NCBI GenBank assembly: GCA_028704885.1
Contig: JAQWEN010000001.1
Coordinates: 427,999 to 491,998 of the forward strand
Direction: 5' to 3'
From: Candidatus Shapirobacteria bacterium
GTDB taxonomy: Bacteria > Patescibacteriota > Microgenomatia > UBA12405
DNA: 64,000 bases
The notes below the pieces were generated by a model. The model ran no database searches. It saw nothing but the letters and a program-made list of their open reading frames with translations, and was not told the origin of the DNA. The position numbers and the translations under genes were made by a program. Each line of letters begins with the position of its first letter. Within the stretch, counting starts at the first letter, position 1. Below are positions 32,795-64,000 of this stretch, piece by piece.

Positions 32795-32860
32795 GTTTGT
32801 ATAATCTTAACACTTGAATGATTATAAGAAAAATGGAGTCAAAATGGAAATTAATTAGGC

Positions 32861-32873
32861 TATAATAGTTAAG
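32861..32873 (+). promoter_or_regulatory. -10 box TATAAT (32861-32866) 7 nt upstream of the ATG at 32874; candidate leaderless promoter
   Basis: An 80-nt divergent intergenic region with no Shine-Dalgarno sequence. The spacing is identical to the 4224 case. Confidence 0.3.
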
Positions 32874-37896: not shown

Positions 37897-37926
37897 TTAA
37901 AGATACTTTATTTTATACTAACAAAG

Positions 37927-41541: not shown

Positions 41542-42718
41542 AAAAAAATGAACCGATGATACCTAATAAAAGGAGTATTTGATGAATCTGCTGTTGTAAA
41601 AGAGATGGATTAATTGACGTTTTTAATTTGATTAATTGAAAAGGTGAAGTAATATCAATAAAGGCTGAATCGATTGGAATTAAATGGCCCCAAAAAAGGA
41701 AATTATCATTAAAGAGAAAAATATAAATGTAAATTAAAATAAAAAATAATATTAAATATAATTTATTAAAAATTTTAGAATTGATAAAAATTATTAAAAT
41801 AAAAGGAAAAAACCAAATTAACCATTGGGGATGAAATTTAACTAAACCAATAAAAATTAAAAATGTTTGAGTGACAGCCAACTCAAATTTATATTTTGAT
41901 TTAGAGAAAATATAATTTATTAAAATTAATAAATATAAAATTGGGAAGATTGGTAAATTTAATAGTTTGTATTCTAATATTTTTTGAGTTAGACCGGAAC
42001 CTAAAAATGAACTAATAAAAGTGTTTTGGTTTATAAAAGGAATAACTGTAATAATTAATGGTATTAAGGAAAAACAACAATATTTTAAGTGTTTTAAAAT
42101 GTTTTTCGGTTCATAAAAAAAGATAAATGCAACAAAAATAATGGGATACATTTTTAAGGCAATTGCCAGACCAATTGATAGATAAGAAAAAAGTAATTTT
42201 TGTTTTCTTAAGAAATAAAAAGAAAGAACTGTTAAAAAAGTCGGCAGAATATCGAAATTTCCCAAGACATATATCAAATAAATGGAAATAGGATTAAACA
42301 GCCAAAAATAAAAAATTTTTGAATTATTAAAAATTTTTAAAAGTAAAATAGCTAGGCCAATATCTAAAATAAGATAGGGAATCTTAAGTAAAAACATATA
42401 ATAGATAATATTAATGTAGTTGTTTTTATTTTCACCCCAGTCATTTAACCAAAGATAAAAATCGTTACCTAGAAATGGTTTAGTAATGGCTTGGGTGATA
42501 CCAAAAGTGTAATAAGTTAGAGGTAAATAATTAAAAGTGTCTTTGTAGCCTAAGGTTGATTTATTTTGAGAAAGATATTCATAAATATTAAAAATTCCAC
42601 GAGATAAAAATTGAAAATGATAATGCTGTGACTTAATATCAGGATGATAAAAAAAAGGCATTATTAAAACACGAATCAAAATTGCCAAGAACAATATTTT
42701 TTTATATTTTGACAGCAC
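41525..42718 (-). CDS. Polytopic membrane protein, HxD-motif family member 1 (putative GT-C; motif reminiscent of the GT22 HxDE motif)
   Basis: After TM1 comes FFYHPDIKS. Shared downstream motifs are LKIPYLILDIGLAILL, LFNPISIYL and LKMYPII. It is paralogous to 45833-47143 and 59790-61001. Confidence 0.45.
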   Translation of the reverse strand: MLSKYKKILFLAILIRVLIMPFFYHPDIKSQHYHFQFLSRGIFNIYEYLSQNKSTLGYKDTFNYLPLTYYTFGITQAITKPFLGNDFYLWLNDWGENKNNYINIIYYMFLLKIPYLILDIGLAILLLKIFNNSKIFYFWLFNPISIYLIYVLGNFDILPTFLTVLSFYFLRKQKLLFSYLSIGLAIALKMYPIIFVAFIFFYEPKNILKHLKYCCFSLIPLIITVIPFINQNTFISSFLGSGLTQKILEYKLLNLPIFPILYLLILINYIFSKSKYKFELAVTQTFLIFIGLVKFHPQWLIWFFPFILIIFINSKIFNKLYLILFFILIYIYIFLFNDNFLFWGHLIPIDSAFIDITSPFQLIKLKTSINPSLLQQQIHQILLLLGIIGSFFYAKKK

Positions 42719-42738
42719 TGCTTAATTCTACCTCGAAA

Positions 42739-44406
42739 ATGTTAAACTTGACCATGTGGAAGAAAAATTATATTTTAATATTAATTTTAATTCTAGCCAT
42801 ATTTTTGAGGTTTTTTAGATTGGATTACTTGGAACTTTTTGGAGATGAAATAGACGCAGGATACCAATCCTATTCGTTACTGGAAACAGGACGGGATTAT
42901 AAAGGTCATTTGTTACCGTTATACGCTCAAAGCTTTTCTGAATGGAGAGCACCAATGATGATGTATTTTATGATTCCATTTATTAAAATATTTGGATTGA
43001 ACGAATTTGGAGTAAGAAGTTATTCAGCATTTTTTGGAATAGTAAGTATATTGGGAATTTATTTTTTATTAATGAAAATTGGTGTCAAAAAGAAAATATC
43101 TTTAATGACGGTTTTTTTGATAACTATTTTACCTTGGCATATTCAATATAGCCGATCTGCTTTTGAAGTTACATTAATGTCTAGTTTTATTATTTGGGGA
43201 AGTTATTTTTTGATTGATTATTTTAATAAACATAAATTTTATAAATTATTTTTGGCGGCTGTTTTATTATCTTTAAGTTTTTATACCTATAATACGGCTA
43301 ATATTTATGTTCCGTTATTAATATTGATTATTTTTACTGGAAGAAAATTTTTTACTAAAGAAAAGATATTTAAACCGGCCTTCAAATTACTAATAATAAT
43401 GTTTGTTTTAAGTTTGCCAATTTTATATCAAATTTTTTTTGGAACTGGAGCAGAAAGATTTAAAAAAGTTTCACTTTTTAATAACGATAATTTAGTATCA
43501 GAAATAAATGATTATCGAAAACAGCAAAATTATTCATTAGTGTCAAAAATTTTTTATAATAAAGTTGTTTATTCTGTCAGAATAATCGGAGCTAACTATT
43601 TAAATGCCTTTAGTTCTGATTATTTGTTTGGTATGGGTGATGTGACATTTAGACATTCTTTACATAAAACAGGTAATTTATTTTGGGTTTATGGAATATT
43701 TTTAATTGTAGGAATTATATTTTTTATTAAAAATAAAAAGAAAAATTTTGGAGATTATTTCATGTTGGGTTTTTTAATTATTTCTCCTATTCCGTCAAGT
43801 CTAACAATAGATGGAGCTTATCATGCGACTAGATTATTTTTGATGTTTTTTCCGTTGGCTTATTTTGCTGCAATCGGATTTTGTCGGTTATTTGAGTATA
43901 AAAAATATATTGGAGTATTTTTATCTTTAATATTGTTTTTTGAATTTAGTTATTTTCAATATTATTACTGGAATTCATATAAACAGGATTCTTGGCGCTG
44001 GTGGCATTATGGATATAAAGAGATAATGAAATCAGTGGTTGAATTAGAAAATGATTATGAAAAGGTTTTAATTGAAAATACTTATGAACCAGCTTTGCCA
44101 AGGTATTTATTTTGGTCAAAATATAATCCCCAAAGGGTTTTTTCTTTAAAGGATCAGAATAATGAAAAAATAGATGGATTTGAAGGCTTTTGTTTAGATA
44201 ATAAAGATTGTTTTGTAAATTTTGGAGACGGAATTTTTAATGTTAAAAATATGGTTAATAATCATCTCTATATGATTAGTCAGTCTTTAAATATCGGTGG
44301 TGATTGGTATTGGAATGAAAATCCACCAGCAGGGGTTAAAGTTTTAAAAACAGTAAGAAATCCAATTGGAGAACCATTGTTTTATTTAATAACAAAAAAT
44401 TACTGA
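42739..44406 (+). CDS. PMT_2/GT39/ArnT-like GT-C membrane glycosyltransferase (paralog F)
   Basis: LELFGDEIDAGYQSYSLLETGRDYKG and a C-terminal ENTYEPALPRYLFWSKYNPQ. The track start at 42682 overlaps the divergent gene, so ATG 42739 or 42754 is more likely. Confidence 0.7.
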   Translation: MLNLTMWKKNYILILILILAIFLRFFRLDYLELFGDEIDAGYQSYSLLETGRDYKGHLLPLYAQSFSEWRAPMMMYFMIPFIKIFGLNEFGVRSYSAFFGIVSILGIYFLLMKIGVKKKISLMTVFLITILPWHIQYSRSAFEVTLMSSFIIWGSYFLIDYFNKHKFYKLFLAAVLLSLSFYTYNTANIYVPLLILIIFTGRKFFTKEKIFKPAFKLLIIMFVLSLPILYQIFFGTGAERFKKVSLFNNDNLVSEINDYRKQQNYSLVSKIFYNKVVYSVRIIGANYLNAFSSDYLFGMGDVTFRHSLHKTGNLFWVYGIFLIVGIIFFIKNKKKNFGDYFMLGFLIISPIPSSLTIDGAYHATRLFLMFFPLAYFAAIGFCRLFEYKKYIGVFLSLILFFEFSYFQYYYWNSYKQDSWRWWHYGYKEIMKSVVELENDYEKVLIENTYEPALPRYLFWSKYNPQRVFSLKDQNNEKIDGFEGFCLDNKDCFVNFGDGIFNVKNMVNNHLYMISQSLNIGGDWYWNENPPAGVKVLKTVRNPIGEPLFYLITKNY

Positions 44407-45845
44407 TTTCTTATTTGAAGGTAATAATATTTTATATCTATGTTTAGATTTGTCATACCTTCAATGTAACTTCTATTGGTTAAAAGAATCGATCCTGGAG
44501 GTGGTAGTAAGTCTGGATTAATGTAATTTAAATTATCTGTAAAATAAATAGATTCAAAAAAATTATTAGAAATATTAGTGGCCATATACGGTTTTAGATT
44601 AAGTTCTTCAGATTTAGTTTTTAATTTTTTGAATGATAAATAAGGTTTTAGATCGCCAAGAAAATTTTGGGTCAATTTGCGATAGTCGCCATAATAATGA
44701 TGAAGGAAGTCGTAATAATTGGCTAGAGATAAAAATAAAACAATAAAAATAACAATTTTTTTATAATTAGCACTTATTTTTACTAAATATTGAAAACCGT
44801 AAGTGCAAATAATGGCGTAAAAAGGAATAAGACACATTAGACGGCTGGCACGATGAACTGAGTTAACAGAACCATAGAGAAGTGGAGTGGTAAAGAATAT
44901 GAGAAGAATGAAACGAGAAAATTTATTAGTTTTGATTGATTTATATATTCCAATAAAAAACAATGGCATTGAGGCAAGGAGAAAGAAACCATGATAGCCA
45001 GTGGAATGAAAAAGGAGTTCATCCCCTTTTATAAAAAGAAAAGTGAGATCGTAACTGGAAAAATAAGGATATAAAAAATTATATAAATTATCAAAAACAG
45101 GTCTGGCTCCACCAAAAATAGCACCTGGATAATAATGGTTTAATAACGGTGAAATTAAGAAAAAAGGTAAAGAGAATAGACTGAATATAAAAAATTGTTT
45201 AATATTTTTTAAGATTGGATTTTTAAAAATGTAAATTAAAGATAATAAATACCAAATCGGAAAGACAGCCCGCATGCCCTTGTAAGTATAAAAATTAATA
45301 CCTAAAGAAAGAGCGGAAACAATTAGAAATTTGATATTTTTATTTTTTTCGTAAAGATAAAGAAAATAAAACCAGATAATAGCAAAAGGTATAGTCATAA
45401 TATTGTCTAAACCCATATGACTTTGAATCATTATTAGAGGTGTGGTGAGAAATATTAAAACAGTTAATAAAGAATATTTTTGATCGAAAACTTTTCTGGC
45501 AAATTTATAGAGTAAAAAGGAAGACAATAAAGTAATTAAGATAGAACTAAAACGAAGGAGAAAAACTGAAGGTTTGAAAAGCCAAAATAAAAAAGCTAAA
45601 TAATATTGAGTAATTGGCTGTTTCCAGTCGGTACCATTATTGGCTAAAACAAAAAGAGGAAGAAATCGGCCATTTTCATCATGTCCAGTTTTTGATAATA
45701 AGCTGGCATTATAACCAAAAGCAGTTTCATCGCCAGTTAGACCCATGGGGACATCAAGTAGTTTATAAGAAAAGAAAAGACATAATAAAACAGAAAATAT
45801 TAAAGCAAATAAAATTGGGAAAAAATATTTCTTTATTTTGAGCAT
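44400..45845 (-). CDS. PMT_2/GT39-like GT-C membrane glycosyltransferase (paralog G)
   Basis: VPMGLTGDETAFGYNASLLSKTGHDENG and more than 10 TM helices. Confidence 0.65.
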   Translation of the reverse strand: MLKIKKYFFPILFALIFSVLLCLFFSYKLLDVPMGLTGDETAFGYNASLLSKTGHDENGRFLPLFVLANNGTDWKQPITQYYLAFLFWLFKPSVFLLRFSSILITLLSSFLLYKFARKVFDQKYSLLTVLIFLTTPLIMIQSHMGLDNIMTIPFAIIWFYFLYLYEKNKNIKFLIVSALSLGINFYTYKGMRAVFPIWYLLSLIYIFKNPILKNIKQFFIFSLFSLPFFLISPLLNHYYPGAIFGGARPVFDNLYNFLYPYFSSYDLTFLFIKGDELLFHSTGYHGFFLLASMPLFFIGIYKSIKTNKFSRFILLIFFTTPLLYGSVNSVHRASRLMCLIPFYAIICTYGFQYLVKISANYKKIVIFIVLFLSLANYYDFLHHYYGDYRKLTQNFLGDLKPYLSFKKLKTKSEELNLKPYMATNISNNFFESIYFTDNLNYINPDLLPPPGSILLTNRSYIEGMTNLNIDIKYYYLQIRNQ

Positions 45846-52683: not shown

Positions 52684-54343
52684 CTATTTGAAGATCAAAG
52701 GTACTTAGGGTGAAATTTTGGTCAGCGACTAAATAAATATATTTAATATTGTTGTTATTAAGAAAACCTCTGGCGAAAAATTGATCAGCGGTGGAAAAGA
52801 ATTTTTCTTCTTCAGTCCGTCTTTGTTGCCAATTAAAACCAGTAATATCAAGATTCATTTCATCCTCTAAAAATGTTTGTTTATGACTAAAAGCAGAAAC
52901 ATAGGCGGTAGTTTCATAGGCATATAAAGGAATAGGGGTAATCATTTTGTCCTTTTTGTATTTATCGTAGGGAAAAGTTAAGACAAAGCCATTATCTTGA
53001 TTTTTAAGAAAATTAAGAGCCTCAATTTCTGAATTAGGAAGAGAACTGGGAGGTGGATTGCCAAAATAATCTTTAAGAGTGCCGATAGTGGTAATGGAAG
53101 AAATAAACAATAAAAGTATCACTAATATTTTATGTTTTGACCAGTGATTTGATAAAAATTGAGCAAAATAAAAGTTGGCAAAAAAGAGGAAATAATAAAA
53201 AAACTGAATTGTATTCCAAGCAGTCCCCTTTTGAACAAAAAGGAGGGGAATTAGAAATGAAAAAATAAGAACAAAAATAATTAAATTATCAAAGTGATTT
53301 AATTTTTTCTTTAAGATTTTGGAATAAATTTCAAAGAAAGCTAAAAATCGAGTGCCTAAGTTGCCTATTAAAAAAATTAAAACTAAAATAATTTCAATAA
53401 AAATAGAAATAAAAATATTAGTTTGATTAAAGCGGAAAGAAGCTAATTTTGGCCAATATAATTTGTCGATTGATTCAATCATGGAATGAGTGAACCAAAG
53501 TGGCTTAAATTCGAGAAGAGAGTTACCTTGTAATACGCCTAAAAGACCAACTATTAAAAGAGAGACTAAACCGGTTGTTAGACAAACGGTAAAATTAAAA
53601 CCAAATATTTTTTTGGATTTAATGGCATTAAAAAGCCAATGTAAGGATAAAGCCAAGCCAATTAAAATGCCGGCATAAACCTTGATACCACTTAATAAAC
53701 CAAAAATTAAACCTATTAAAATTGCAAATTTAATTGAATTGGAAGAATAATATTTACACCAAAGAGTTAGACCAAACAAAATTAAAATTAAAGACAAGGC
53801 AAAAGGCGGATTTAAGAGAGTGGAAACGGATTGCATTGACCAAAAAAGAGATTCGCCACCAAGTTGGTGATTTTTTAACAAAGTGTAAATCCAGCCAAAA
53901 GATCCAGAAAAATAATTTAAAATAACAAACAAAATACTGGTAATATTGTTTTTGGTGATTAAAAAAGCAAGTTTGAAAGATAAAAAGCCAAGCAAAAGTG
54001 CAAAAACAATCGGCAATATTTGAAAATAAAGAAGAACAGTATCTATTTTGGTTAGGTTGGAAATAAAAGCGACAAAAAAATCAAAACCCCAATGGTAATT
54101 ACTTAATAATTCTCCAGAATAGATTGGGTTTTGGGGTGGAACCTGCTGTTTTAATTGATTTATTAAACTTAAGTGCCAAATAGCATCGTGACCATTTGGG
54201 CCCCAAAAACCTAGACCAAATTGATTTTTTAGGCCACTTCTAAGCATAGTTAAAGAAAAAAGAATGGCACTAAGAGTGATTAAAACAACCAGAATAATTT
54301 TTATTTTTTTTGCCTTAGACATGAAAGTTGATGCCAAAACCAA
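52634..54343 (-). CDS. Large polytopic membrane protein with a C-terminal soluble domain (unassigned; possible polymerase or GT-C-like)
   Basis: About 13 predicted TM helices. The first loop is FGLGFWGPNGHDAIWHLSLINQL. No family was recognised. Confidence 0.35.
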   Translation of the reverse strand: MVLASTFMSKAKKIKIILVVLITLSAILFSLTMLRSGLKNQFGLGFWGPNGHDAIWHLSLINQLKQQVPPQNPIYSGELLSNYHWGFDFFVAFISNLTKIDTVLLYFQILPIVFALLLGFLSFKLAFLITKNNITSILFVILNYFSGSFGWIYTLLKNHQLGGESLFWSMQSVSTLLNPPFALSLILILFGLTLWCKYYSSNSIKFAILIGLIFGLLSGIKVYAGILIGLALSLHWLFNAIKSKKIFGFNFTVCLTTGLVSLLIVGLLGVLQGNSLLEFKPLWFTHSMIESIDKLYWPKLASFRFNQTNIFISIFIEIILVLIFLIGNLGTRFLAFFEIYSKILKKKLNHFDNLIIFVLIFSFLIPLLFVQKGTAWNTIQFFYYFLFFANFYFAQFLSNHWSKHKILVILLLFISSITTIGTLKDYFGNPPPSSLPNSEIEALNFLKNQDNGFVLTFPYDKYKKDKMITPIPLYAYETTAYVSAFSHKQTFLEDEMNLDITGFNWQQRRTEEEKFFSTADQFFARGFLNNNNIKYIYLVADQNFTLSTFDLQIDEIFNNGQVRIYQTRK

Positions 54344-55791
54344 ATAATTTCATTTTTAGAAAAAAGAAAAGTATAAAGACCATAGATTACAATCGAAATT
54401 AAGATTTTACCGATGATATTAAAAAAACTATTAAGATTTAAAGTTTGAAAAACTAAACAAGCAACAATCATTAATAAAGTAGCAATGGTTGGATTAAAAA
54501 TAGTTTTGATAATATGAATGTTAAAAATCCTTTTGGCAACAAACCAAACAATAAAAGAACTGAGACCGACGATTAAGGCTGCCCAAGCAGTACCAACATA
54601 GCCGAACTTATAACTTAAAATTGGAAAAAATATCCAAGTTAAGGTTGTCCACATAATCATGAACTTAGTGGTTAGAGTTATTTTACCGACAGCATTGAAA
54701 GCATTGGTTAGAGGGGTGGTAACAGAGGCGATAGCAACATTAACGGCATAAAGATAAAGAGGAAAAATAGCTGGAGCCCATTTGGTATATTTTGGAATGA
54801 AATTAATGATATCAGAAGAAATTAGGGCAATTCCAGCAGTCATAGGAAACACAAAAAGAGCGATAAAATAAATACTTTTTTCAAGTGATTTTTTTAAAAC
54901 TTCTTTATTATCTTGAAGACGAGCAAAAGTGGGAAAAGTAACTTTCATGATAGCATCCATGAAACTAAGAGGAATTCTAGGGCCTTTTTGAGCCCAAGCG
55001 AGAATACCGTAGGCATCTCGACCAATTATGCCGGCGACAAAAAGACTGGAGAATTTATCTTTAGCGACAGAAATAAATGAATTTAGTTGATAAGGAATGC
55101 CATACTTAAAAAGTAATTTAATTGAATCCAGATGAAGGTCAAAGCCAATTGGCCAAAAACTATATCGATAAATCATAACTAAACCAACAAGACTACGAAT
55201 GAAGGTAGCAATGGCATAGGAATAGGCGCCAAAGCCTAAGAAAGCAAAAATAACTGCAAAAACATAAAAACAGGCATTTTCGACAATGTCGATGGTGGAA
55301 ATTAATTTAAAGTTTAGTTTTCTTTCCAATAAAACAGATGGAACAGTTTTTAAGGAAGCACAAATAAAAGAAAAACAAAGTGAAATAAAAATCCAAAATT
55401 CTTTGGGGCCATAACCTTTGGCTAAGCTAACTTTGGAATAAACAAAATAAATGACAATCAAAGAAATAAAAACTAGGATTTGCTGGATAGTAAAAGTAGT
55501 TTGGAGTTCTTCTTTTTTAATTTCAGCTTTCTTTTGAATTAGAGCGGCAGCCAAACCAATATCAGAAAAATAACCTAAAATACTGACTGATTCTGAGACA
55601 ACAGCAAACAAACCAACATCACCAACACCTAACAAGATGGTTAGTAAAAAGAAACCAATAATAGAAATCCCTTGAATACCAATATTTCTCAAAGAGAGAA
55701 ATAAAACGTTTTTAGTAGTTTTTTGTTTTATTTCTTGGAGATCAATTTCTTCCATAGTGGATTTAATAAATATAAAACTAACCCCAACCAA
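54301..55791 (-). CDS. wzx: Polysaccharide biosynthesis protein / oligosaccharide flippase (Wzx, MOP superfamily)
   Basis: 496 aa with about 12-14 TM helices. N-terminus NVLFLSLRNIGIQGISIIGFFLLTILLGVGDVGLFAVVSESVSILGYFSDIGLAAALIQKK matches the PST-family N-terminus. Confidence 0.65.
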   Translation of the reverse strand: MVGVSFIFIKSTMEEIDLQEIKQKTTKNVLFLSLRNIGIQGISIIGFFLLTILLGVGDVGLFAVVSESVSILGYFSDIGLAAALIQKKAEIKKEELQTTFTIQQILVFISLIVIYFVYSKVSLAKGYGPKEFWIFISLCFSFICASLKTVPSVLLERKLNFKLISTIDIVENACFYVFAVIFAFLGFGAYSYAIATFIRSLVGLVMIYRYSFWPIGFDLHLDSIKLLFKYGIPYQLNSFISVAKDKFSSLFVAGIIGRDAYGILAWAQKGPRIPLSFMDAIMKVTFPTFARLQDNKEVLKKSLEKSIYFIALFVFPMTAGIALISSDIINFIPKYTKWAPAIFPLYLYAVNVAIASVTTPLTNAFNAVGKITLTTKFMIMWTTLTWIFFPILSYKFGYVGTAWAALIVGLSSFIVWFVAKRIFNIHIIKTIFNPTIATLLMIVACLVFQTLNLNSFFNIIGKILISIVIYGLYTFLFSKNEIIWFWHQLSCLRQKK

Positions 55792-57467
55792 GCAAATAAA
55801 GAAATATAATTGGAAATAGTCCTAATAGGAGTGTTCTTTAATTTAACATAAATTTGATGATCACCGGCTTTTAAATTTATTACCATGCGACCAAGATCTG
55901 GTTCAATTTGATAATCTATCTTTTGACCTTTATCGGTAATTTCAAAATTAGGAAAAGCTAATTGGGAAATAGTAACTTTGGCATCTTTATTAAGAAAGAG
56001 ATTAAAAAACAACCAATCAGTTCCTTTTTTTTGGCCAGAAAGATTAATTAGAGAATTTTGAGGATCGATATTGTCGATATACGGGGTAGCAGCTGAGGTG
56101 GGAGCCGACGAAGCAGTTTTTGGTAAATAATCATAAATACTGGCAGAACTTTGGGCAGCCCAAGCTTGTCCAGAAAATTTTTGTTCATCTGTAAGCGGTC
56201 CACTGGTAATTGGATGAAAATAATTTAAATTAATTGAAATTAAAATAATTAAAGTTAAAGAAATAATTATTGTAGTTAGCTTTTTATTAATGTATTTATT
56301 GAAAATAAAAGGCAAAACGCCGATAGATAAGGAAAGGAAAAAGGCAGCGTTGTTTAAAAAACGCCAAGGGAATTGAATTTTTTGAATAGGAGAAAATATT
56401 TGCCAAATTATGGTTGATTTGTTGTGGACCATAAAAATGGAAAATAAACCCATAATCGAAAGAAGTAGAGAAATAATTATTTTTTTGTCTAAAATCTGTT
56501 TTTTAATTAGAAGAAAAATAGAAAAGAAGATTATTAGTAAAGGAATAATCCAATGAAGATAACCAATCATAAAAGACATACCATCATTAGGGCCCCAAAT
56601 TGAGCCACCGTCACCCCAAAAATTACTGATAAACAATTGATAGAGCGAAGCAAAATGAGCTGAATAATGATAATAACCCTCAAACATTTTTTTAAATTGG
56701 GTTAAATTACTTTCAAAAAGAACTGGTAAAGTAAAAAAGGCGGTTAACGATAAAGCGAAAATTCCAGAAAATAAAAATTTAAGGAACAAAGGTAATTGTT
56801 TAATTATTTTTTTAGAAAAAACAATTTTTTTATCAATAATTAACCAAAACAAAGACCAAGCTAAAAAGAAAGGGGTGAAGGTTAAAACCATAGGATTGTG
56901 GGATAGAAATAAGGCAGCATAAGCCAAGGAAAGGCCAATAATATTTTTATTTTTGCCAGTTTTGATGAGCTGATAGGAAAAATAAAAAATTAAAGGAAAG
57001 AAAACAGCAGCCCAGGCTTCGTTGTAGGCACCACGAACATAAATATTAAGAGCATGATAAGGCGCGTAGGTATAAAATAAAGCGGAAAGTAAACCTCCAA
57101 ACTCACCAAATAAAGTTTTGGCTAAAAGATACATAAAAAAAGCAGCTAAAATTATTTGAGTTACAGCGATTAATTTGGCAGAATTTACAAAAGAAAAGCC
57201 TAGTGTTCGATATATTTGACCGACGATGTAAGGCATGGGTGGATAAAAGTTAAAAAGAGGATAGCCATATTCGTAACCAAGATCTGGAGACCAACGACAA
57301 GGTATTTGACCATCTTTTAGACATTTTTCCATTTCTAATTGGCGAATCATCTGCATATCATCATGCATGTTGTAATAGCCAGGTTTTAATAATGAGAAAA
57401 AGGCCGGAATAACGGCTATTAAAAGAATTAAGGGAAAAATATTTTTTTTAATTAGATTGAATTTCAT
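55728..57467 (-). CDS. Large polytopic membrane protein, DD-motif family member 3 (probable GT-C)
   Basis: NMHDDMQMIRQLEMEKCLKDGQIPCRWSPDLGYEYGYPLFNFYPPMPYIVGQ, colinear with 32874-34553 and 34550-36190. Confidence 0.5.
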   Translation of the reverse strand: MKFNLIKKNIFPLILLIAVIPAFFSLLKPGYYNMHDDMQMIRQLEMEKCLKDGQIPCRWSPDLGYEYGYPLFNFYPPMPYIVGQIYRTLGFSFVNSAKLIAVTQIILAAFFMYLLAKTLFGEFGGLLSALFYTYAPYHALNIYVRGAYNEAWAAVFFPLIFYFSYQLIKTGKNKNIIGLSLAYAALFLSHNPMVLTFTPFFLAWSLFWLIIDKKIVFSKKIIKQLPLFLKFLFSGIFALSLTAFFTLPVLFESNLTQFKKMFEGYYHYSAHFASLYQLFISNFWGDGGSIWGPNDGMSFMIGYLHWIIPLLIIFFSIFLLIKKQILDKKIIISLLLSIMGLFSIFMVHNKSTIIWQIFSPIQKIQFPWRFLNNAAFFLSLSIGVLPFIFNKYINKKLTTIIISLTLIILISINLNYFHPITSGPLTDEQKFSGQAWAAQSSASIYDYLPKTASSAPTSAATPYIDNIDPQNSLINLSGQKKGTDWLFFNLFLNKDAKVTISQLAFPNFEITDKGQKIDYQIEPDLGRMVINLKAGDHQIYVKLKNTPIRTISNYISLFAWLGLVLYLLNPLWKKLISKK

Positions 57468-58998
57468 AGAGAATTAGTTTGTCGTTGTCAGGCTTATTAA
57501 ACGATTTAATTAATTTTAATCGACTTTGATCAATTATTTTAAGGCGAGATTGATTAATCAGAAGATAAACTTCATCACCATATTTTTTAGCATTGGCTAA
57601 GTTGGCGGGCAATTCGGTAAAACCAAGACCAAGGCCAATAATAGTTAAATGAGGAATTTTATTGCCATAAATTTGAAGACCATCTGGAAGAGTGCCAAAA
57701 GCACCTTCGGTTCCAACAATTACATTGGCTGATAAAGATCTTTGTTTTAGAAAATCAGCTGATTCTTTAATTCCCCACCCTGAAGTCCAATCAGATAAAT
57801 AACCTTGTTCAGTGGAAGTTAATTTTTGATGAAAAGGATCAATCGAAATTTTATAGATAAATTTTAGATTTAAAATAGAAATGGCGATAATAAAAATTGT
57901 TTTTAAGAAATTAGGTTTAATTTTGGTTAAAAAATTTAAAAAGCCAATAGAAATTAAAATAATTAAAGGTGGAAGAGTAAAGAGAATATAACGGGCAGTA
58001 AAAACTTTGGCAAGAGCAGCATTGGCAATTAAGGGTAAAATCCACCAACAAATTAGTATTAAATATTTAGTATTTAGTGATTTAGATTTTTTTTGGTTTT
58101 TTAGAAATAAAATTAAACCAATAAGAGCAAAGATCAAAAGTGGCCAAGAAATATATTGATTGTAAAGAGAAAGAGTGTTTAATAAATGAGGTTTAAGAGG
58201 ATCTAACGGATGTTTTAAAATTTCGGAAATTGACCAAATATAATCTTTATTTCGAATGGCAATCTGACTGAACTGGGGCCCAAGACGAAGAATATTGTAG
58301 ATTAAAAAAGCTAGGATAGAAGAAATTATAGGAAAAATTGTTAGTTTAATTTTACGAAAATTAAATAATAAAAAGGTGGTCAGAGATAAAACTATAAAAT
58401 AAATAGCTGGAGATTTAGTAAGCCAAGAAAGACCTAAAATAAAGCCCAAAATTAAGGATATATCTAATCTGGGATATTTGGCCAAAAGTAAAGAAAGAAA
58501 TAGAGCTGAAAGGCCAAAAAATGAAAGCAAAGTGTCAGCCAAAGCCATACGGTCAAAAAAGAAGGAAAAAGGCAGAAAACAATAGATTAAAGAAGGAAAT
58601 AGTGATTTGTAGAAATTTTTATTAATACTGTCTTTAATAAATTTAAAAATATTTTGATCTTTGGATTCGTAATTTAAAAAAACTGAGGTAGTTAAAAAAA
58701 GTAATAAAACTAGACCAAAACCAGCAAAGACAGAAACAATACGACCGGAGACTAAGGGATCAGAAAACATTTTTAGAGTAACAGCATTAATCCACATAAA
58801 AAGAGGCTGTTTACCGTCAGTTTGAGGAATAAATCGGAGAGATTCTTCTGCTTTAATGATTTGGGCCCAACGGATATAGATAGCTTCATCACCAAAAACT
58901 GGAATTGCAGTTAAATTTTGGAGACGAGAGAAAAAATAAAAAACAATGATTAGGATTGACAAAAACAAAGGAAAAAATTTATTTTTGATCATAAACAC
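57448..58998 (-). CDS. PMT_2/GT39/ArnT-like GT-C membrane glycosyltransferase (paralog H)
   Basis: TAIPVFGDEAIYIRWAQII after TM1 and more than 10 TM helices. It lies immediately downstream of a Dpm1-like GT2, giving an ArnC/ArnT-style pair. Confidence 0.65.
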   Translation of the reverse strand: MFMIKNKFFPLFLSILIIVFYFFSRLQNLTAIPVFGDEAIYIRWAQIIKAEESLRFIPQTDGKQPLFMWINAVTLKMFSDPLVSGRIVSVFAGFGLVLLLFLTTSVFLNYESKDQNIFKFIKDSINKNFYKSLFPSLIYCFLPFSFFFDRMALADTLLSFFGLSALFLSLLLAKYPRLDISLILGFILGLSWLTKSPAIYFIVLSLTTFLLFNFRKIKLTIFPIISSILAFLIYNILRLGPQFSQIAIRNKDYIWSISEILKHPLDPLKPHLLNTLSLYNQYISWPLLIFALIGLILFLKNQKKSKSLNTKYLILICWWILPLIANAALAKVFTARYILFTLPPLIILISIGFLNFLTKIKPNFLKTIFIIAISILNLKFIYKISIDPFHQKLTSTEQGYLSDWTSGWGIKESADFLKQRSLSANVIVGTEGAFGTLPDGLQIYGNKIPHLTIIGLGLGFTELPANLANAKKYGDEVYLLINQSRLKIIDQSRLKLIKSFNKPDNDKLILYEIQSN

Positions 58999-59758
58999 CT
59001 TGGAGGTTGTTTCGAATAACTCTAAAAATTTCCTGCATCATTTGTTTTGATTCTTTTTTGAAACGAGCTGAATCATCACCTTTAGTAGTGCTTAAATCTT
59101 CATTTTTCCAATCAACTTCAACCTCTTTTATTTTATATCCCCATTTTTGGGCCATAAATAAAAGTTCAACATCAAAAGCGGAAACTCGCCAACCTTTTTT
59201 GTCTGATTTATCTTTAAAAAATTGAAGATTGGGAAATATTTTTTTGGCTAAATCGGTTTTTATAGCTTTAAAACCACACTGGGTATCAATTATATTAGGA
59301 AGTAAAAATAAACGACGACCAAAAAGGAAACCTCGAGCCATTATTTTTCTAATTATGGAATTACCTTCTCTGGATATACCACGAGAACCAATTACAACAT
59401 CATAATTTTGATCAAAAAATGGGATTAATTTGGTTAATTCTTTTAATGGAGTAGATTGATCCATATCAGTAAAAAGAGTTAATGGATATTTGGCTTGTTT
59501 AATTCCACCCCAAACGGCTGATGGTTTACCACCATGAGGTAAATCTAAGACTCGAAAACCTTTGTGTTTAGAGACAAAATCTTGGGCTAATTTAAGACTG
59601 TTATCAGTAGATTCATCATTACAAACAATTACTTCCCATTTAAATTGTTGAGTTTTTAAAAAAGCATAAACCTCATTTAAAACTCCATTTTTTAAATTAT
59701 TTTCTTCGTTATAGCAAGGGATTATTATTGAGATAGAGATCATTGGTTTATTATACAA
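58979..59758 (-). CDS. Polyprenol-phosphate sugar synthase (GT2, Dpm1/GtrB/ArnC-like)
   Basis: ISISIIIPCYNEENNL...WEVIVCNDESTDNS, HGGKPSAVWGG, TDMDQSTP, VVIGSRG and IIDTQCGFKAIK. Confidence 0.8.
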   Translation of the reverse strand: MYNKPMISISIIIPCYNEENNLKNGVLNEVYAFLKTQQFKWEVIVCNDESTDNSLKLAQDFVSKHKGFRVLDLPHGGKPSAVWGGIKQAKYPLTLFTDMDQSTPLKELTKLIPFFDQNYDVVIGSRGISREGNSIIRKIMARGFLFGRRLFLLPNIIDTQCGFKAIKTDLAKKIFPNLQFFKDKSDKKGWRVSAFDVELLFMAQKWGYKIKEVEVDWKNEDLSTTKGDDSARFKKESKQMMQEIFRVIRNNLQGVYDQK

Positions 59759-59775
59759 AAAATAAGGGATAATGC

Positions 59776-59789
59776 TATTATAATTTCAT
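59776..59789 (+). promoter_or_regulatory. Extended -10 TGcTATTAT / TATAAT (59773-59784) 5-8 nt upstream of the ATG at 59790; candidate leaderless promoter
   Basis: A 31-nt divergent intergenic gap with no Shine-Dalgarno sequence. Confidence 0.3.
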
Positions 59790-61001
59790 ATGGTTATATC
59801 GAAAAAAGTTTTTTTAGGACTATTTGTAGTAGCTTTTTTATTGAGAATTGGATTAGCAATTAGTACCTATCATTCGGATATCGGATCATTTGCAATGGCG
59901 GGAAAATATATAGTTGGTGAGGGTAAAGTTTTAGGATTTTTTGATGCAGTAACCACCAGAGGAACAAAAGGTGAATTAAAACTTTTTGGCGATCAAATAG
60001 TTTTTAACTATCAACCATTGGCTTATCTAATTCCTTCGGCTATTTATTTACCATTTAGACCGATAATTATTAACACGGCTAGTCAGTTAGTAAACACTAA
60101 TTGGACAGCATTACATCAAAAAAGTATTTACTGGCCACTTTTGATTTACAAATTACCAATGATATTAGCAGATTTGGCAATAGTTTTATTGTTACCTAAA
60201 TTGTTTGAGGATAAAAAGAAAAAAATATTAGCTCAAATATTATGGCTTTTTAACCCAATTGCAATTTATGTTAGTTCGATGATGGGTCAAGTAGATATAA
60301 TAATTGCTTTATTTTTATTATTAGCTTTGATTAATTTAAAAAATAAAAGAAATTATAAAGCAGTAGTTTGGGTGGCATTATCGGCATTAATTAAACCGGC
60401 TGGACTAATTTTGATTCCAATTGTAGCCATAAACGAATTCCATAAAAAAAATAATTGGTTTGATTTAATCAAAACCGCCTTTTTGGGTTGTTTGGTTTAC
60501 GGTTTAGGAGTGGCATCTTATATTTGGTCTCCAGCTTATAGATATTTTTCTTTATTTGCTGAACAAATTGGGAAAAGTACTTTTGCTGGGATAGCAGTAG
60601 CTTCTGGAACAGTAATTCCTTGGTTTTTCATAGCTTTTATTTTTGGTTTATTTTTATTTTGGAAAAAGAAAATTAATATTGAAACTATTTTTGGATTGTC
60701 TTTAATAACAAGTCTAGTATTTACTCATTTTCATCCACAATGGTTGGTTTGGATAATGCCGTGGATGATTTATGAATCAATTAGAAAAGAAGAAATAGTT
60801 CTTTATTTGGGAATGATAGCGGCTTGGTTGGGAATAGTTTTTTCCTTTGATTCAACCCTGCATATTGATATGTTTTTAGCCCGAGGAATGGTAACGGCAA
60901 CTACATTCAGTGGTAATTTAATATCGGAAATAACAATGTTATCTAGAGCTTATTTGGTAGCTATAACTGGATATAAATTTATCGAAAAGAAAGAAAACTA
61001 A
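59790..61001 (+). CDS. Polytopic membrane protein, HxD-motif family member 3 (putative GT-C)
   Basis: AISTYHSDIGSF, YKLPMILADLAIVLLL, LFNPIAIYVS and LIKPAGLIL. Confidence 0.45.
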   Translation: MVISKKVFLGLFVVAFLLRIGLAISTYHSDIGSFAMAGKYIVGEGKVLGFFDAVTTRGTKGELKLFGDQIVFNYQPLAYLIPSAIYLPFRPIIINTASQLVNTNWTALHQKSIYWPLLIYKLPMILADLAIVLLLPKLFEDKKKKILAQILWLFNPIAIYVSSMMGQVDIIIALFLLLALINLKNKRNYKAVVWVALSALIKPAGLILIPIVAINEFHKKNNWFDLIKTAFLGCLVYGLGVASYIWSPAYRYFSLFAEQIGKSTFAGIAVASGTVIPWFFIAFIFGLFLFWKKKINIETIFGLSLITSLVFTHFHPQWLVWIMPWMIYESIRKEEIVLYLGMIAAWLGIVFSFDSTLHIDMFLARGMVTATTFSGNLISEITMLSRAYLVAITGYKFIEKKEN

Positions 61002-61002
61002 A

Positions 61003-62481
61003 TTAATTTTTTGTACCATCTGGGTTTTTGACAAGTTTGAATATTTTTATGCCGTTGATCTCCCATTGATTATCAATTTTGGCCCAGCCAAAAGCAGCAA
61101 CTGACCATTCTGGATTACCGATAGGATTACATTCTATTTGGAAAGGTTCACAAACAACAAAAAGCTGGTCAGCTAATTTCTCTGGTAAATTGACTATTTT
61201 AGCCTGTTTAGTAGCTAAAATATAACGATATGGAGGATCATAGTTTTGTTTAGCAAGAAGGGCAAAATTAAAATCTTGGTTATTAGAATTGGCAATAATA
61301 GTATCAGCAATTTGATTAACAGTTTTTAGTTGAGAGTTAGGTTGGTAACGAAATGGATTATTAGTAAAAGAAAAGATAGTTATTAGGATAAAAAATGGAA
61401 CACCAATAAGTTTAAATTTATTAATTAAAAAAGCAGCAAGAATAAAAACTGAAGGAAAAAGGAAAGCAAAATAATGAGCATAGATATGTTGTTTATAAAG
61501 AGCCAAAGCAATTAATCCTGATAAGTACCAGAAAAAAATAATCCAAAAAGAAGATTTTTGTTTTTTATATTTAAGAAGAAGAGGTATAAGACAAAGAGTA
61601 AAAATAATACTAATTATTATGCCGACAGTTTTGTCTCTGCCAGTAAGAAGATCCGTATTAACTTGATTAAAGATACTTGGGAGCTCAGGAATGGCTTTGT
61701 AGGCTTTAATATTAACAGTGGTTTCACGATAAGTGAAAAAATTCAAAAGAGCTTTGGCGTTTTGACCATTGTGCTTGAGATCAAAAAGAACCTGAGGAGT
61801 GAGAGAAATAATAAAAATTAAAGCGGCTAAAAGGGTATATTTTATGAAGGGTTTTAAATTTGGTGATTTTGTTTTGATAAATTTAACAAGGTTATAAAGC
61901 CAAAAAAGACCAGTAAATGGTAAAAGGGCCAATCCAAGATAATGACTATTCATCACCATAACAAAAGCTATAGAAGCATATAGGAAATAATGAAATTTTT
62001 TGGATTTGAAGCTTTCAAAAAAGAAATAAATAAAAAGGAGACTGAAAAAAGGCATGATATTGGGATTCCAGATGAAATTGGAATATTTGATAGTTACCGG
62101 AGAAATGGCATATAAAAAGGCAGCAATATAGGCGGTTTTTGGATTAAACCATTTTTTACTGATAAAAAATATAAGAGCAACTGTGGCAATACTTAATAGA
62201 GCAATAAAGATAGCGGGGCCAACTGGGTTGTAATTGGCTAATAATAAGGAAGGAGCGATTAAGTAATAAAAATAAGGGCCAAGATACATGTTGCCAATAC
62301 TAGTTTGAGGGCCGATAAAGAATAAATTACCATGTTGAAGAAAATCTTTAATAATAACCACATCTCGGCCTTGATCACCCAAGAATTCCATATAGTCAGA
62401 AATTCGGTAAAGACGAAAGAAAGAGGCAATTAAAAGAATGATTATTAAAAGCCAATATTTTTTAAGAATTTTTTTAAGCAC
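61003..62481 (-). CDS. PMT_2/GT39-like GT-C membrane glycosyltransferase (paralog I, DxxRD variant)
   Basis: YMEFLGDQGRDVVIIKDFLQHGNLFFIGPQTSIGNMYLGPYFYY and more than 10 TM helices. The track start (TTG at 62595) overlaps the upstream GT2 by 122 nt; an in-frame GTG at 62479-62481 gives an 8-nt overlap and is preferred. Confidence 0.6.
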   Translation of the reverse strand: MLKKILKKYWLLIIILLIASFFRLYRISDYMEFLGDQGRDVVIIKDFLQHGNLFFIGPQTSIGNMYLGPYFYYLIAPSLLLANYNPVGPAIFIALLSIATVALIFFISKKWFNPKTAYIAAFLYAISPVTIKYSNFIWNPNIMPFFSLLFIYFFFESFKSKKFHYFLYASIAFVMVMNSHYLGLALLPFTGLFWLYNLVKFIKTKSPNLKPFIKYTLLAALIFIISLTPQVLFDLKHNGQNAKALLNFFTYRETTVNIKAYKAIPELPSIFNQVNTDLLTGRDKTVGIIISIIFTLCLIPLLLKYKKQKSSFWIIFFWYLSGLIALALYKQHIYAHYFAFLFPSVFILAAFLINKFKLIGVPFFILITIFSFTNNPFRYQPNSQLKTVNQIADTIIANSNNQDFNFALLAKQNYDPPYRYILATKQAKIVNLPEKLADQLFVVCEPFQIECNPIGNPEWSVAAFGWAKIDNQWEINGIKIFKLVKNPDGTKN

Positions 62482-63238
62482 GGTGAAAATTAATTTTATA
62501 CCAAAGCTTAAATAAATCAGAAAAGCTTTTAATGATAACTTTAATGTTTCTGCCCGTAGCTTGACCTTCAACCCGAGGATAATGATGAACTCCAACTTCG
62601 CTGATTTTGAAGCCAGCCTTTTTGGATTTGATTAAGAATTCACTACTAATAAAGGCTCCCCTTTCAGCTTCTAGCTTGGGAACAGTGTCAACAACCTTCT
62701 TATTGATTAGCTTGAAACCACAATCAATATCGGTGACATGAAGACCAAAAAGAACAAAAACGATGAGTTCCCAAATTTTGCTGGTAACAATGGCAGCTTT
62801 TGAGACTTGACGGGCCAAATAGTAGCCAATAATAATATCAGAATTAGTTTTTTGCTGCTTTTCAATGAGCTTAGTGATCTCAGTAAAGTCAAACTGACCA
62901 TCGGCATCAGTGAAGGCAATCCACTGATATTGAGCATTATAAAGGCCACTTTTAAGGGCGGCACCATAGCCACGATTTGGGTTGTGAGTGATGATTTTTA
63001 CTTGTTTTGGATAGTCTTTTTTAATTTCTTCTAAGACTTTGGCAGTGTTATCTTTGGAACCATCATTAATTAAAATAATTTCCCATTTTTCGGCTATTTT
63101 TTGAAGAACGGGGATGGTTTTACTGATAGTATTTTTAATGTTTTTCTCTTCGTTATAACAAGGAAAAAAGACAGAAAGCTCATTTATTAAAAATTTATTC
63201 ATGGCTAAAGTATAAGGCAAAAGAGGCTTAAAATACAA
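62474..63238 (-). CDS. Polyprenol-phosphate sugar synthase (GT2, Dpm1/GtrB/ArnC-like)
   Basis: LSVFFPCYNEEKNIKNTI...WEIILINDGSKDNT, NRGYGAALKSG, TDADGQFD, IIIGYYLAR and TDIDCGFKLINKK. Confidence 0.8.
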   Translation of the reverse strand: MYFKPLLPYTLAMNKFLINELSVFFPCYNEEKNIKNTISKTIPVLQKIAEKWEIILINDGSKDNTAKVLEEIKKDYPKQVKIITHNPNRGYGAALKSGLYNAQYQWIAFTDADGQFDFTEITKLIEKQQKTNSDIIIGYYLARQVSKAAIVTSKIWELIVFVLFGLHVTDIDCGFKLINKKVVDTVPKLEAERGAFISSEFLIKSKKAGFKISEVGVHHYPRVEGQATGRNIKVIIKSFSDLFKLWYKINFHRA

Positions 63239-63255
63239 GGGAAATGGGGCCTATC

Positions 63256-63284
63256 TTGACAAATTGGTGAATTGGACATATAAT
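63256..63284 (+). promoter_or_regulatory. Perfect sigma70 consensus promoter TTGACA-N17-TATAAT
   Basis: TTGACA at 63256-63261, a 17-nt spacer, then TATAAT at 63279-63284. The -10 box overlaps the track's ATG at 63283, so translation probably starts downstream. Confidence 0.5.
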
Positions 63285-63312
63285 GGCCTATAATTATATA
63301 TTAATAACGCAG

Positions 63313-63933
63313 GTGAAACACAAAATATTAACTATCAGCTTTGTATTTGGGGCAATGGCGATATTATTCTTATCGTTATTCAGTCCTTCTAAGGCCTATG
63401 GTCAATCTTATTCTCAAGGTGAAAAAGCCAAACTTTCAATTGATAAAAAGATCCGATCTGTTGGTGATACTCAATATTATGACAATATTGAAGCTTCTAA
63501 TAAAACTTTTTATGAAAATGATGTAATCGAGTTTCAAATTAGAATCGAAAATATCAGCACTGAAGTGGTCTATAATATTAATACAAAAGATATTTTACCT
63601 AAATATTTAAGCTTAATCTTTTATCCTGGCACTTTTGATAAAGATCAATATATTGTTGAATGGAATATTGATAAATTAGAAGCTGGTGAAAGTAAAACAT
63701 ACTTAATTAGAGCTAAAATTAAAGATGCTACCAAGTTTAATGCTTTAACTAAACAAACTAATAAAGCTGAAGCTTGTGGTGGTGGTTCTTGTGATCAAGA
63801 CTATGCCAGTTACTTTATTGGCAAAACAACTGTACCAGCTACTGGTGCTTCTGATATAGCTTTAAAAACAATTTTAGTTATCTCAATTGCGGCTACTGGA
63901 TTTTATTTCAGAAAGTTAGCTAGAGAATATTAA
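63313..63933 (+). CDS. Secreted DUF11-like surface protein with a C-terminal sorting-signal-like tail (VPATG motif, hydrophobic helix, basic tail)
   Basis: With a GTG start at 63313 the N-terminus is (M)KHKILTISFVFGAMAILFLSLFSPSKA/YGQ, a textbook signal peptide. AGGTGA at 63311-63316 is complementary to the 16S 3' end. The mature domain resembles DUF11-type cell-surface repeats (VIEFQIRIENISTEVVYNINTKDILPKYL). The C-terminus is TVPATGASDIALKTILVISIAATGFYFRKLAREY. The track ORF starts at 63283. Confidence 0.55.
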   Translation: MKHKILTISFVFGAMAILFLSLFSPSKAYGQSYSQGEKAKLSIDKKIRSVGDTQYYDNIEASNKTFYENDVIEFQIRIENISTEVVYNINTKDILPKYLSLIFYPGTFDKDQYIVEWNIDKLEAGESKTYLIRAKIKDATKFNALTKQTNKAEACGGGSCDQDYASYFIGKTTVPATGASDIALKTILVISIAATGFYFRKLAREY

Positions 63934-63950
63934 TCTAAATTAAACCTTTG

Positions 63951-63984
63951 AAAATCCCCTGTCGAAAGATGGGGGATTTTTATT
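63951..63984 (+). terminator. Rho-independent terminator
   Basis: aaaatcccc-tgtcgaaagatg-ggggatttt forms a 9-bp stem (5 G-C pairs) that extends into a GAAA-tetraloop hairpin and is followed by a T-run. It lies 18 nt after the stop of the surface-protein gene. Confidence 0.6.
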
Positions 63985-64000
63985 ACCACATAATACGTAT

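Follow-up and report, generated by a model that had tools for sequence, protein, structure and literature searches.

Is the small surface protein encoded at the edge of a glycosyltransferase-rich region in a Candidatus Shapirobacteria genome the substrate of the enzymes encoded beside it, or is it simply their neighbour? The DNA analysed here (hereafter, the window) is a stretch of 64,000 nucleotides (nt) from contig JAQWEN010000001.1 of assembly GCA_028704885.1, positions 427,999 to 491,998 of the forward strand. Near its downstream end lie two gene pairs, each consisting of a GT2-family glycosyltransferase (GT2_a, GT2_b) and a polytopic partner of GT-C type (GT-C H, GT-C I), and, divergent from the second pair, a gene for a protein of 206 amino acids (aa) with a CLIPPER/DUF11 domain, here called the CLIPPER protein. 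A first-pass annotation made from the sequence alone had proposed these genes as a protein-glycosylation module with the secreted protein as its substrate, a reading that we regard as speculative. The explanation that we favour, with a probability of about 0.55, is that the pairs make polyprenyl-phosphate-linked monosaccharides and, outside the membrane, pass the sugar on to a glycopolymer produced by the surrounding gene island, that the CLIPPER protein is an independent, abundant and sortase-anchored protein, and that the adjacency of the two is frozen gene order.

The genes and signals on which the argument rests are the following, in window coordinates.

57448..58992, minus strand: GT-C H, a 514-aa candidate polytopic membrane glycosyltransferase (Pfam PMT_2 at 23 bits, below the cut-off)
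58979..59743, minus strand: GT2_a, a 254-aa soluble Dpm1/GtrB-like candidate polyprenyl-phosphate sugar synthase (Pfam Glycos_transf_2, 88 bits)
59790..61001, plus strand: GT87/Alg-like polytopic membrane protein in the variable slot between the pairs (Pfam GT87 at 22.9 bits, below the cut-off)
61003..62481, minus strand: GT-C I, a 492-aa ArnT-like GT-C glycosyltransferase (Pfam PMT_2, 40.7 bits against a cut-off of 26.1)
62474..63202, minus strand: GT2_b, a 242-aa Dpm1/ArnC-like candidate polyprenyl-phosphate sugar synthase (Pfam GT2, PF00535, 110 bits)
63203-63238, minus strand: candidate promoter of the GT2_b operon, with TATACT 6 nt upstream of ATG 63202 and a weak -35 box TTGTAT at a spacing of N18 (elements 63209..63238)
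63256..63284, plus strand: sigma-70-type promoter TTGACA-N17-TATAAT matching 12/12 positions, with no second perfect site in the window (consensus scan)
63287..63296, plus strand: conserved element CCTATAATTA immediately downstream of the -10 box, either another TATAAT or a start-site region, present in 22/22 species
63313..63933, plus strand: gene of the 206-aa surface protein (NCBI gene call; Pfam DUF11)
about 63949..63984: intrinsic terminator hairpin with a 15-bp stem (about 63949-63982), a GAAA loop and flanking A- and U-tracts (sequence and RNAfold)

Both GT2 proteins comprise full-length GT-A domains, and their nearest solved relatives, ArnC, GtrB and DPMS, are all polyprenyl-phosphate glycosyltransferases that match across the whole catalytic domain. 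The top PDB sequence matches of GT2_b were ArnC (9BHC/8VXH, E~5e-18) and then GtrB, covering residues 6-216 of 242, and those of GT2_a were GtrB (5EKE, sll0501) and the Pyrococcus DPMS (5MLZ) at E~7e-13. A DAD motif is found at residue 99 of GT2_b and a DMD motif at residue 93 of GT2_a, and a C-terminal transmembrane (TM) helix is absent from both. NCBIfam matches of the two proteins (ArnC, PpgS, DolP-hexose transferase, AglJ and PgfS, the last recorded for both and far below its cut-off) likewise point to polyprenyl-phosphate sugar synthases; in GT2_b those to ArnC, PpgS and DolP-hexose transferase extend over the entire domain. No equivalog cut-off was reached in NCBIfam (80 against 529 bits for ArnC, 62 against 370 for PpgS), and because all matches fall far below their cut-offs, the subfamily and the sugar are left undefined by them. 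The starts of both genes were corrected from the NCBI gene call: GT2_b begins at 63202, with an ATG that is kept in 22 species, and not at 63238, and GT2_a begins at 59743 and not at 59758; the pairs themselves are present as first described.

For GT-C I the fold was the informative property, since a PDB sequence search returned no meaningful match. The AlphaFold2 (AF2) model (pLDDT 86.7, pTM 0.87) was placed by Foldseek closest to ArnT (5F15/5EZM), followed by oligosaccharyltransferases (AglB, PglB), ALG12/ALG9, Pmt4 and Emb; Pmt4 and Pmt1-2 come no higher than 20th, after ArnT and the oligosaccharyltransferases. The protein scores 21.1 bits against PF02366 (PMT), under the cut-off of 22.7. 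An aspartate, D36 in GDQGRD, stands directly after TM1 and is invariant in the orthologues and in the paralogues of the window. By its model, therefore, GT-C I is a GT-C-fold enzyme that is nearer to ArnT than to GT39, and the 'GT39-like' label it had been given fits loosely. GT-C H is a candidate GT-C enzyme on sequence grounds: it has nine hydrophobic segments, a GDE motif after TM1 and a weak match to Agl23 in addition to the sub-threshold PMT_2 match, and its orthologues are flagged PMT_2.

The genes of GT2_a and GT-C H overlap by 14 nt and those of GT2_b and GT-C I by 8 nt; such overlaps recur in the orthologous loci and show the two genes of each pair to be translationally coupled. At the candidate promoter of the second pair, a GAGTATAA block is kept in the 22-species alignment and is absent from the consensus-scan calls; with its TATACT so close to the start codon, the mRNA of this glycosyltransferase operon may be leaderless or nearly so. 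Homology, the DxD motifs, coupling, the ArnT-like model and the invariant aspartate after TM1 together support for both pairs the ArnC/ArnT-type logic that had been proposed for them, i.e. a cytoplasmic GT2 and a GT-C acting outside. In this scheme the soluble GT2 would join a monosaccharide to polyprenyl phosphate on the cytoplasmic side, and after flipping of the lipid-linked sugar the coupled GT-C would hand the sugar on to an extracytoplasmic acceptor.

The CLIPPER protein carries a signal peptide in residues 1 to ~30 (MKHK, a hydrophobic core and SKA-YG), a single Ig-like CLIPPER/DUF11 domain in residues ~41-170 (PF01345, 42.1 bits against a cut-off of 24.6) and a C-terminal sorting signal made up of V174-P-A-T-G178, a hydrophobic segment and RKLAREY. 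The prediction of a secreted repeat-domain protein was thus correct as to secretion, the domain being present once and not as repeats. At an NCBIfam threshold of E<=0.01 the DUF11 repeat model is its sole match. An alignment of 31 sequences shows the tripartite C-terminus to be family-wide, with an invariant [VI]PxTG followed by a hydrophobic segment and RKxxRGY, from which we infer sortase-type anchoring to the wall. The genes of the CLIPPER locus, to which the search for a sortase was confined, include none; sortase has been reported to be near-ubiquitous in Microgenomates (PMC6744442).

Residues 41-170 were modelled by AF2 as an Ig-like sandwich at pLDDT >90. A PDB sequence search with the family profile gave no meaningful match, and the fold search alone was informative: Foldseek returned the CLIPPER structure 9IFR (target-normalised TM-score 0.67), the pilins BcpA, SpaD and EbpC, and C-domains of antigen I/II. 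Invariant positions of the alignment are D44, K45, N58, F66, E73, N80, D93, P96, F103, P105, G106, R133, N150, D163, P175 and G178. Among these, K45 in the first strand, N150 in a C-terminal strand and the acidic D93/E73 fit the Lys/Asn/Asp triad of CLIPPER domains, for which an isopeptide bond involving K715/N806/D748 has been described (bioRxiv 10.1101/2025.04.25.650565), and this arrangement suggests that a Lys45-Asn150 isopeptide bond probably locks the domain here.

The pilins among the fold matches bring up a further explanation, namely that the CLIPPER protein is a sortase-polymerised pilin to which the neighbouring glycosyltransferases are irrelevant. The structural resemblance to Gram-positive major pilins, the sortase-type signal, the invariant Lys45 and a very high predicted expression are all in its favour. 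The alignment nonetheless shows neither a YPKN-type motif nor an E-box, the conserved FYPGT contains no lysine, known pilins have two or more domains against the single one here, and neither a pilus-specific sortase nor an accessory pilin gene is present in the locus. The CPR (candidate phyla radiation) pili that have been solved are built of PamA/B, two-domain donor-strand pilins that are unrelated. The canonical sortase pilin was rejected for want of the pilin lysine motif and E-box, and a role in polymerised pili generally is very improbable. Two other candidates were also discarded: a Pam-type CPR pilin, PamA/B being two-domain proteins of 39-55 kDa assembled by donor-strand exchange, and an S-layer protein. 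The S-layer role, proposed at first, does not suit a single Ig-like domain of ~16 kDa with a covalent anchor signal of sortase type.

Members of the CLIPPER protein family (89-234) are all of about 205 aa, and only this CPR clade appears among the matches listed. When 1.84 billion representative proteins were searched with a profile, thousands of giant multi-repeat CLIPPER adhesins were returned, and about 12 clusters of ~205-aa single-domain proteins were among the top 150. The short single-domain architecture is a clade-specific variation, and we found no description in the papers searched of a single-domain, ~205-aa, sortase-anchored CLIPPER protein under an invariant consensus promoter. 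Between species, identity at the same loci is 37-80% for the CLIPPER protein, 60-89% for GT2_b and 79-90% for BipA, making the CLIPPER gene the fastest-evolving in the locus, as fits an exposed, abundant surface protein.

Transcription signals give the CLIPPER gene a separate identity. The perfect TTGACA-N17-TATAAT site noted at the outset is unique in the window, where two sites were found with one mismatch allowed against 1.7 expected. When the intergenic regions of 22 species are aligned, hardly any change is seen in either hexamer, and the site is exact at N17 in 19/22, with a varying 17-nt spacer and varying flanks; exact conservation around a varying spacer places the promoter far beyond chance. 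Conservation of this consensus promoter exceeds that of the protein under its control, which makes the protein a good candidate for a major surface protein. Secretion and a probable abundance at the surface, both claimed in the first-pass annotation, are borne out by the signal peptide, the sorting signal and the promoter.

Directly downstream of the -10 box, in 63285-63312, a GC-rich [AG][GT]CC discriminator and the second TATAAT within CCTATAATTA are both present in 22/22 species, and a short A/T-rich leader is largely kept. The CCTATAATTA region may be a tandem -10 box, an operator or the region of the start site. The window was scanned for Rfam families and for tRNAs without a match, so that no riboswitch or other RNA element accounts for the conserved 5' region. 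The NCBI gene call starts the 206-aa product at GTG 63313, a codon that no Shine-Dalgarno sequence precedes. ATG 63283 was rejected as the start codon because the -10 box overlaps it and the recorded product starts at the GTG; an exact-sequence look-up of the 216-aa open reading frame (ORF) from that ATG found no match.

Downstream, the strong terminator that had been reported stands: the 15-bp hairpin, missed by a simple terminator scan, is contained in a 90-nt segment that folds at -21 kcal/mol (RNAfold), and a hairpin is found in 18/22 species with sequence changes that preserve the stem. The terminator is probably bidirectional, since it lies between the convergent CLIPPER and FtsEX-hydrolase genes. 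Judged from these signals, the CLIPPER gene is a self-contained monocistronic unit, presumably very highly expressed.

The second partner of that terminator lies just past the window end. At 10671-13368 of the corresponding locus record (L001), an operon convergent with the CLIPPER gene encodes a protein of 389 aa together with FtsX and FtsE. A coiled coil occupies the N-terminal part of this protein, its relatives carry at the C-terminus a domain resembling Peptidase_C39_2 or M23, and it resembles the cell-wall hydrolases of PcsB/EnvC type that FtsEX controls.

Whether the CLIPPER protein is what the GT pairs act upon was approached through gene order and through acceptor sites. Gene order was compared in about two dozen species-level loci, to which two loci reached through GT-C I orthologues were added (65-67% identity; contigs of 141 kb and 739 kb). 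In all of the two dozen or so loci, down to 37% protein identity, the CLIPPER gene lies beside the GT2_b/GT-C I pair. Wherever it is covered, the order is Wzx, GT-C G, GT-C H, GT2_a, the variable slot, GT-C I, GT2_b, the divergent CLIPPER gene and then a convergent block made up of the coiled-coil hydrolase, FtsX, FtsE, u164, LCP, RF2, two small ORFs, a cyclophilin peptidyl-prolyl isomerase (PPIase), a C39_2 peptidase and BipA. The co-occurrence on which the module was to be judged is therefore found in every locus but is not specific, the region from Wzx to BipA being collinear clade-wide with FtsEX, LCP, RF2 and BipA included. Because this whole region is collinear in the clade, adjacency within it carries little functional information. 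The best 120 homologues listed (at least 40% identity for every CLIPPER protein and at least 64% for every GT-C I) all belong to the collinear clade, and within this clade the co-occurrence is best read as shared ancestry and not as independent association.

The remaining variation in the locus concerns the GT-C genes. Between GT2_a and GT-C I, the variable slot of other species' loci (L007-L032) holds 0-2 differing GT-C/GT87-like genes on either strand; in the window it holds the 59790-61001 protein, which has paralogues at 41525 and 45833. Additional GT-C genes are inserted after the CLIPPER gene in L024 and between u164 and LCP in L010 and L016. By reason of the slot and these insertions, the GT-C repertoire varies among species.

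As for acceptor sites, the CLIPPER protein has no Ser/Thr-rich tract, its maximum being 6 Ser/Thr per 20 residues within the sorting signal, and none is conserved among the 31 sequences; likewise no N-x-S/T sequon is conserved, and S42 is the sole conserved serine of the mature domain. The acceptor sites that were to be looked for, a Ser/Thr-rich tract or a conserved sequon, were accordingly not found. On this evidence we consider it unlikely that GT-C I and/or GT-C H, using the lipid-linked sugar of the paired GT2, O-glycosylates the CLIPPER protein outside the membrane as a dedicated surface-glycoprotein module. The invariance of the divergent adjacency in every locus down to 37% protein identity speaks for such a module, as do the secretion and surface anchoring of the protein, the pgf-cnm precedent, a conserved Tyr33-Ser/Asn stretch at the mature N-terminus and the frequency of Ser/Thr just upstream of [VI]PxTG. 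Against it stand, besides the missing tract and sequon, the independent transcription of the gene, which has a promoter and a terminator to itself, and the structure nearest to GT-C I, which is that of the lipid-acceptor enzyme ArnT and not of a PMT. Moreover, most genes in the neighbourhood are glycosyltransferases, so that adjacency to one is expected by chance, and together with the collinearity of the region this makes the adjacency uninformative. Beyond the conserved neighbourhood, then, the proposal of the first-pass annotation that the CLIPPER protein is the dedicated substrate drew no specific support.

Protein acceptors other than the CLIPPER protein are conceivable, and examples lie in the convergent block. 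A cyclophilin-type PPIase lipoprotein with the lipobox LFSAC is encoded ~9 kb downstream of the CLIPPER gene, outside the window (16885-17487 of L001, record JAQUEN010000001.1). Before its catalytic domain is a linker of 30-40 residues rich in Ser/Thr/Pro/Asn, whose composition, and not sequence, is kept in most of the 15 full-length orthologues, and a 164-aa neighbour protein has a Ser/Thr/Pro-rich N-terminal region. By analogy with streptococcal PrsA, the PPIase linker is a textbook candidate acceptor for O-glycosylation by a GT2/GT-C pair. A general protein O-glycosylation of GtrB/PgtC2, Pgf or actinobacterial Ppm1/Pmt type, directed at Ser/Thr-rich linkers in several envelope proteins and not at the CLIPPER protein, would accommodate both regions: a streptococcal GT2 + GT-C pair modifies such regions in PrsA, PBP1a, LytR and PknB (PMC12041528), and the GDE motif of GT-C H is typical of PMT loop 1. 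Nothing links these acceptors directly to these GT-C enzymes, however, some 15 other putative GT-C enzymes would serve equally well, and GT-C I falls below the PMT cut-off, for which reasons we hold this explanation to be rather unlikely. In comparison with the CLIPPER protein, better acceptor candidates are offered by a glycopolymer or by the Ser/Thr-rich linkers found in other envelope proteins.

The LCP gene, found four genes downstream of the CLIPPER gene in most species, offers another route, in which the LCP enzyme would place the lipid-linked glycan of the island on the CLIPPER protein before sortase anchoring, as LcpA transfers glycan to GspA in Actinomyces oris (PMC6381275). Its proximity and the sortase-type signal of the CLIPPER protein are compatible with this. 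In two loci (L007, L018), though, LCP is absent and the CLIPPER gene is retained. The default role of LCP enzymes, the ligation of glycopolymers to peptidoglycan, also weighs against the proposal, for which the chances appear slim.

The island that surrounds these genes provides the evidence for a glycopolymer acceptor. All-against-all comparison and Pfam scans delimit an envelope-glycan island of ~53 kb, from ~9.8 to 63.2 kb, to which nearly all of the genes inside belong; both GT2/GT-C pairs and the CLIPPER gene are, with the variable-slot gene, the final six genes at its downstream edge. The elements described in the first-pass annotation were real, some of their coordinates and labels being corrected as above, and the wider island went unmentioned there. 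It contains many GT2 and GT4 genes, epimerases and methyltransferases (Pfam). The following features of the window bear on its function.

952-3035: ABC-2 exporter
25168, 58979 and 62474: three short Dpm1-like GT2s, the only ones in the window
27905-45845: seven PMT/PMT_2-type GT-C paralogues
32874, 34550 and 55728: three PTPS_related-like polytopic proteins
41525, 45833 and 59790: three GT87/Alg6-like proteins
54301-55791: Wzx flippase, the sole one in the window (Pfam)

The putative GT-C genes amount to ~15 in the 64 kb (seven PMT/PMT_2, three PTPS_related-like, three GT87/Alg6-like, H and I) against three candidate lipid-sugar synthases. This excess, taken with Wzx and LCP, points to the assembly or decoration of a glycopolymer outside the cytoplasm. 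On the explanation favoured here, the acceptor of the two pairs would most likely be the glycopolymer, of wall or membrane, that the other island genes produce; the ~15 GT-C paralogues, the three lipid-sugar synthases, Wzx, the many GT2 and GT4 genes and the nearby LCP ligase are the grounds on which we infer it. The divergent CLIPPER gene would form its own monocistronic unit under its conserved consensus promoter, its product would be secreted by the Sec route and anchored in sortase fashion, and its position beside the GT pairs would reflect the clade-wide frozen gene order.

Several observations weigh against this explanation. The CLIPPER/GT2_b junction is unbroken in all loci, even though insertions are found elsewhere (the variable slot, L010, L016, L024). 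Bacterial O-glycosylation does not always depend on a Ser/Thr-rich tract. Neither a priming phosphoglycosyltransferase nor a GtrA/GtcA-type flippase was found in the window, leaving the glycopolymer pathway incomplete there. Lastly, the adjacency of pgf and cnm in S. mutans is a precedent for GT2/GT-C machinery situated beside a surface-protein substrate (PMC5856776). A combined possibility, in which an isopeptide-locked and sortase-anchored CLIPPER protein is the dominant surface coat protein and is decorated either by the divergent GT2/GT-C pair or, through LCP, with the island glycan, seems to us quite improbable. If it were true, this would be the first defined surface-glycoprotein system of the CPR, and the variable GT-C slot would give rise to strain-specific glycoforms.

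Other features of the window and of the related loci were recorded. GC content of the window is about 30%, and the nearest relatives of its genes are in metagenome-assembled genomes (MAGs) labelled Candidatus Woesebacteria or Shapirobacteria (Microgenomates, CPR). Twelve loci (L013-L015, L018-L020, L023, L024, L026, L029, L030 and L028) are of Microgenomates type and yet come from MAGs that bear the public label 'uncultured Gammaproteobacteria bacterium' or, in one case, 'Candidatus Parcubacteria bacterium', labels that are probably taxonomic misassignments. Among the glycosyltransferases of the island are four B12-binding radical SAM paralogues and one radical SAM-SPASM enzyme (9781-14354, 17384-18496, 22756-24261), whose presence there suggests unusual sugar modifications such as C-methylation or epimerisation. 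From their paralogy pattern, the ORFs at 9781-14354 and 22756-24261 had been considered as Wzx flippases, an assignment rejected when Pfam identified them as B12-binding radical SAM proteins. A '23S rRNA intervening sequence protein' gene (PF05635, 132 bits) occupies 1772-2134, between the ATPase and permease genes of the ABC-2 (Wzt/Wzm-like) exporter, and at 4237-5214, at the upstream island edge, a CofD-like gene (2-phospho-L-lactate transferase family) adjoins an Acyl_transf_3 acyltransferase gene.

Envelopes of CPR/Patescibacteria are almost uncharacterised, and a literature search on Microgenomates glycosyltransferases and cell envelope gave no match; the locus offers two testable handles. 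One is the CLIPPER protein, a candidate major wall-anchored antigen, attachment protein or phage receptor in these ultra-small, uncultured bacteria and a minimal natural single CLIPPER domain. The other is the island, whose richness in GT-C genes is notable for a CPR genome, expected to be small, and would fit an assembly outside the membrane fed by lipid-linked monosaccharides, resembling the arabinan/mannan logic of mycobacteria. The practical value of the analysis is that metaproteomic searches can be aimed at abundance, at glycan mass shifts and at the isopeptide cross-link.

All components of the locus belong to known families (GT2 polyprenyl-phosphate sugar synthases, ArnT-like GT-C enzymes, CLIPPER domains and sortase-type signals), none at equivalog level. 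As in ArnC/ArnT, which modify lipid A with Ara4N, and in the bactoprenol-sugar systems of GtrB/GtrC type, a GT2, with ArnC or GtrB as nearest solved relative, is paired in an operon with an ArnT-like GT-C, and the two-step logic on two sides of the membrane is the same. ArnC and GtrB, however, have two C-terminal TM helices that the GT2s of 242-254 aa here are without, and a flippase gene of the GtrA/ArnE-F type, as in those systems, is not seen in the window. Lipid A is not expected as the acceptor, since CPR bacteria have been described as having no Gram-negative outer membrane (PMC7143001). The Pgf (PgfS/PgfM1/PgfE/PgfM2) and GtrB/PgtC2 systems of streptococci, and Ppm1/Pmt of Actinobacteria, use GT2 and GT-C enzymes on surface or membrane proteins, and pgf lies beside the gene of the LPXTG substrate Cnm (PMC5856776, PMC12041528). 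Their known acceptors are Ser/Thr-rich disordered regions, of which the CLIPPER protein has none, and the pairs here, unlike Pgf, include no epimerase. With the CLIPPER adhesins (9IFR) the protein shares the Pfam match, the fold and the Lys/Asn/acidic set; known CLIPPER proteins, in contrast, are mostly very long with many tandem copies, and the protein here is a single domain with a 20-residue insertion after strand 1. Its C-terminal signal has the same three parts as that of LPXTG sortase substrates, with [VI]PxTG in place of LPxTG.

The systems that add side-chain sugars to wall polymers outside the membrane by means of a GT2 and a GT-C include CsbB/YfhO, GtlA/GtlB (lipoteichoic acid) and GacI/GacL (group A carbohydrate). 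Such Gram-positive decoration pairs sit in or beside polysaccharide clusters with LCP ligases nearby, and their likeness to the pairs described here is by analogy. They differ from the present island in that its ~15 GT-C paralogues are far more numerous, a wealth that is closer in spirit to the mycobacterial Emb/Aft/PimE assembly of arabinan and mannan, and the weak GT87/Alg6-like matches found here point the same way.

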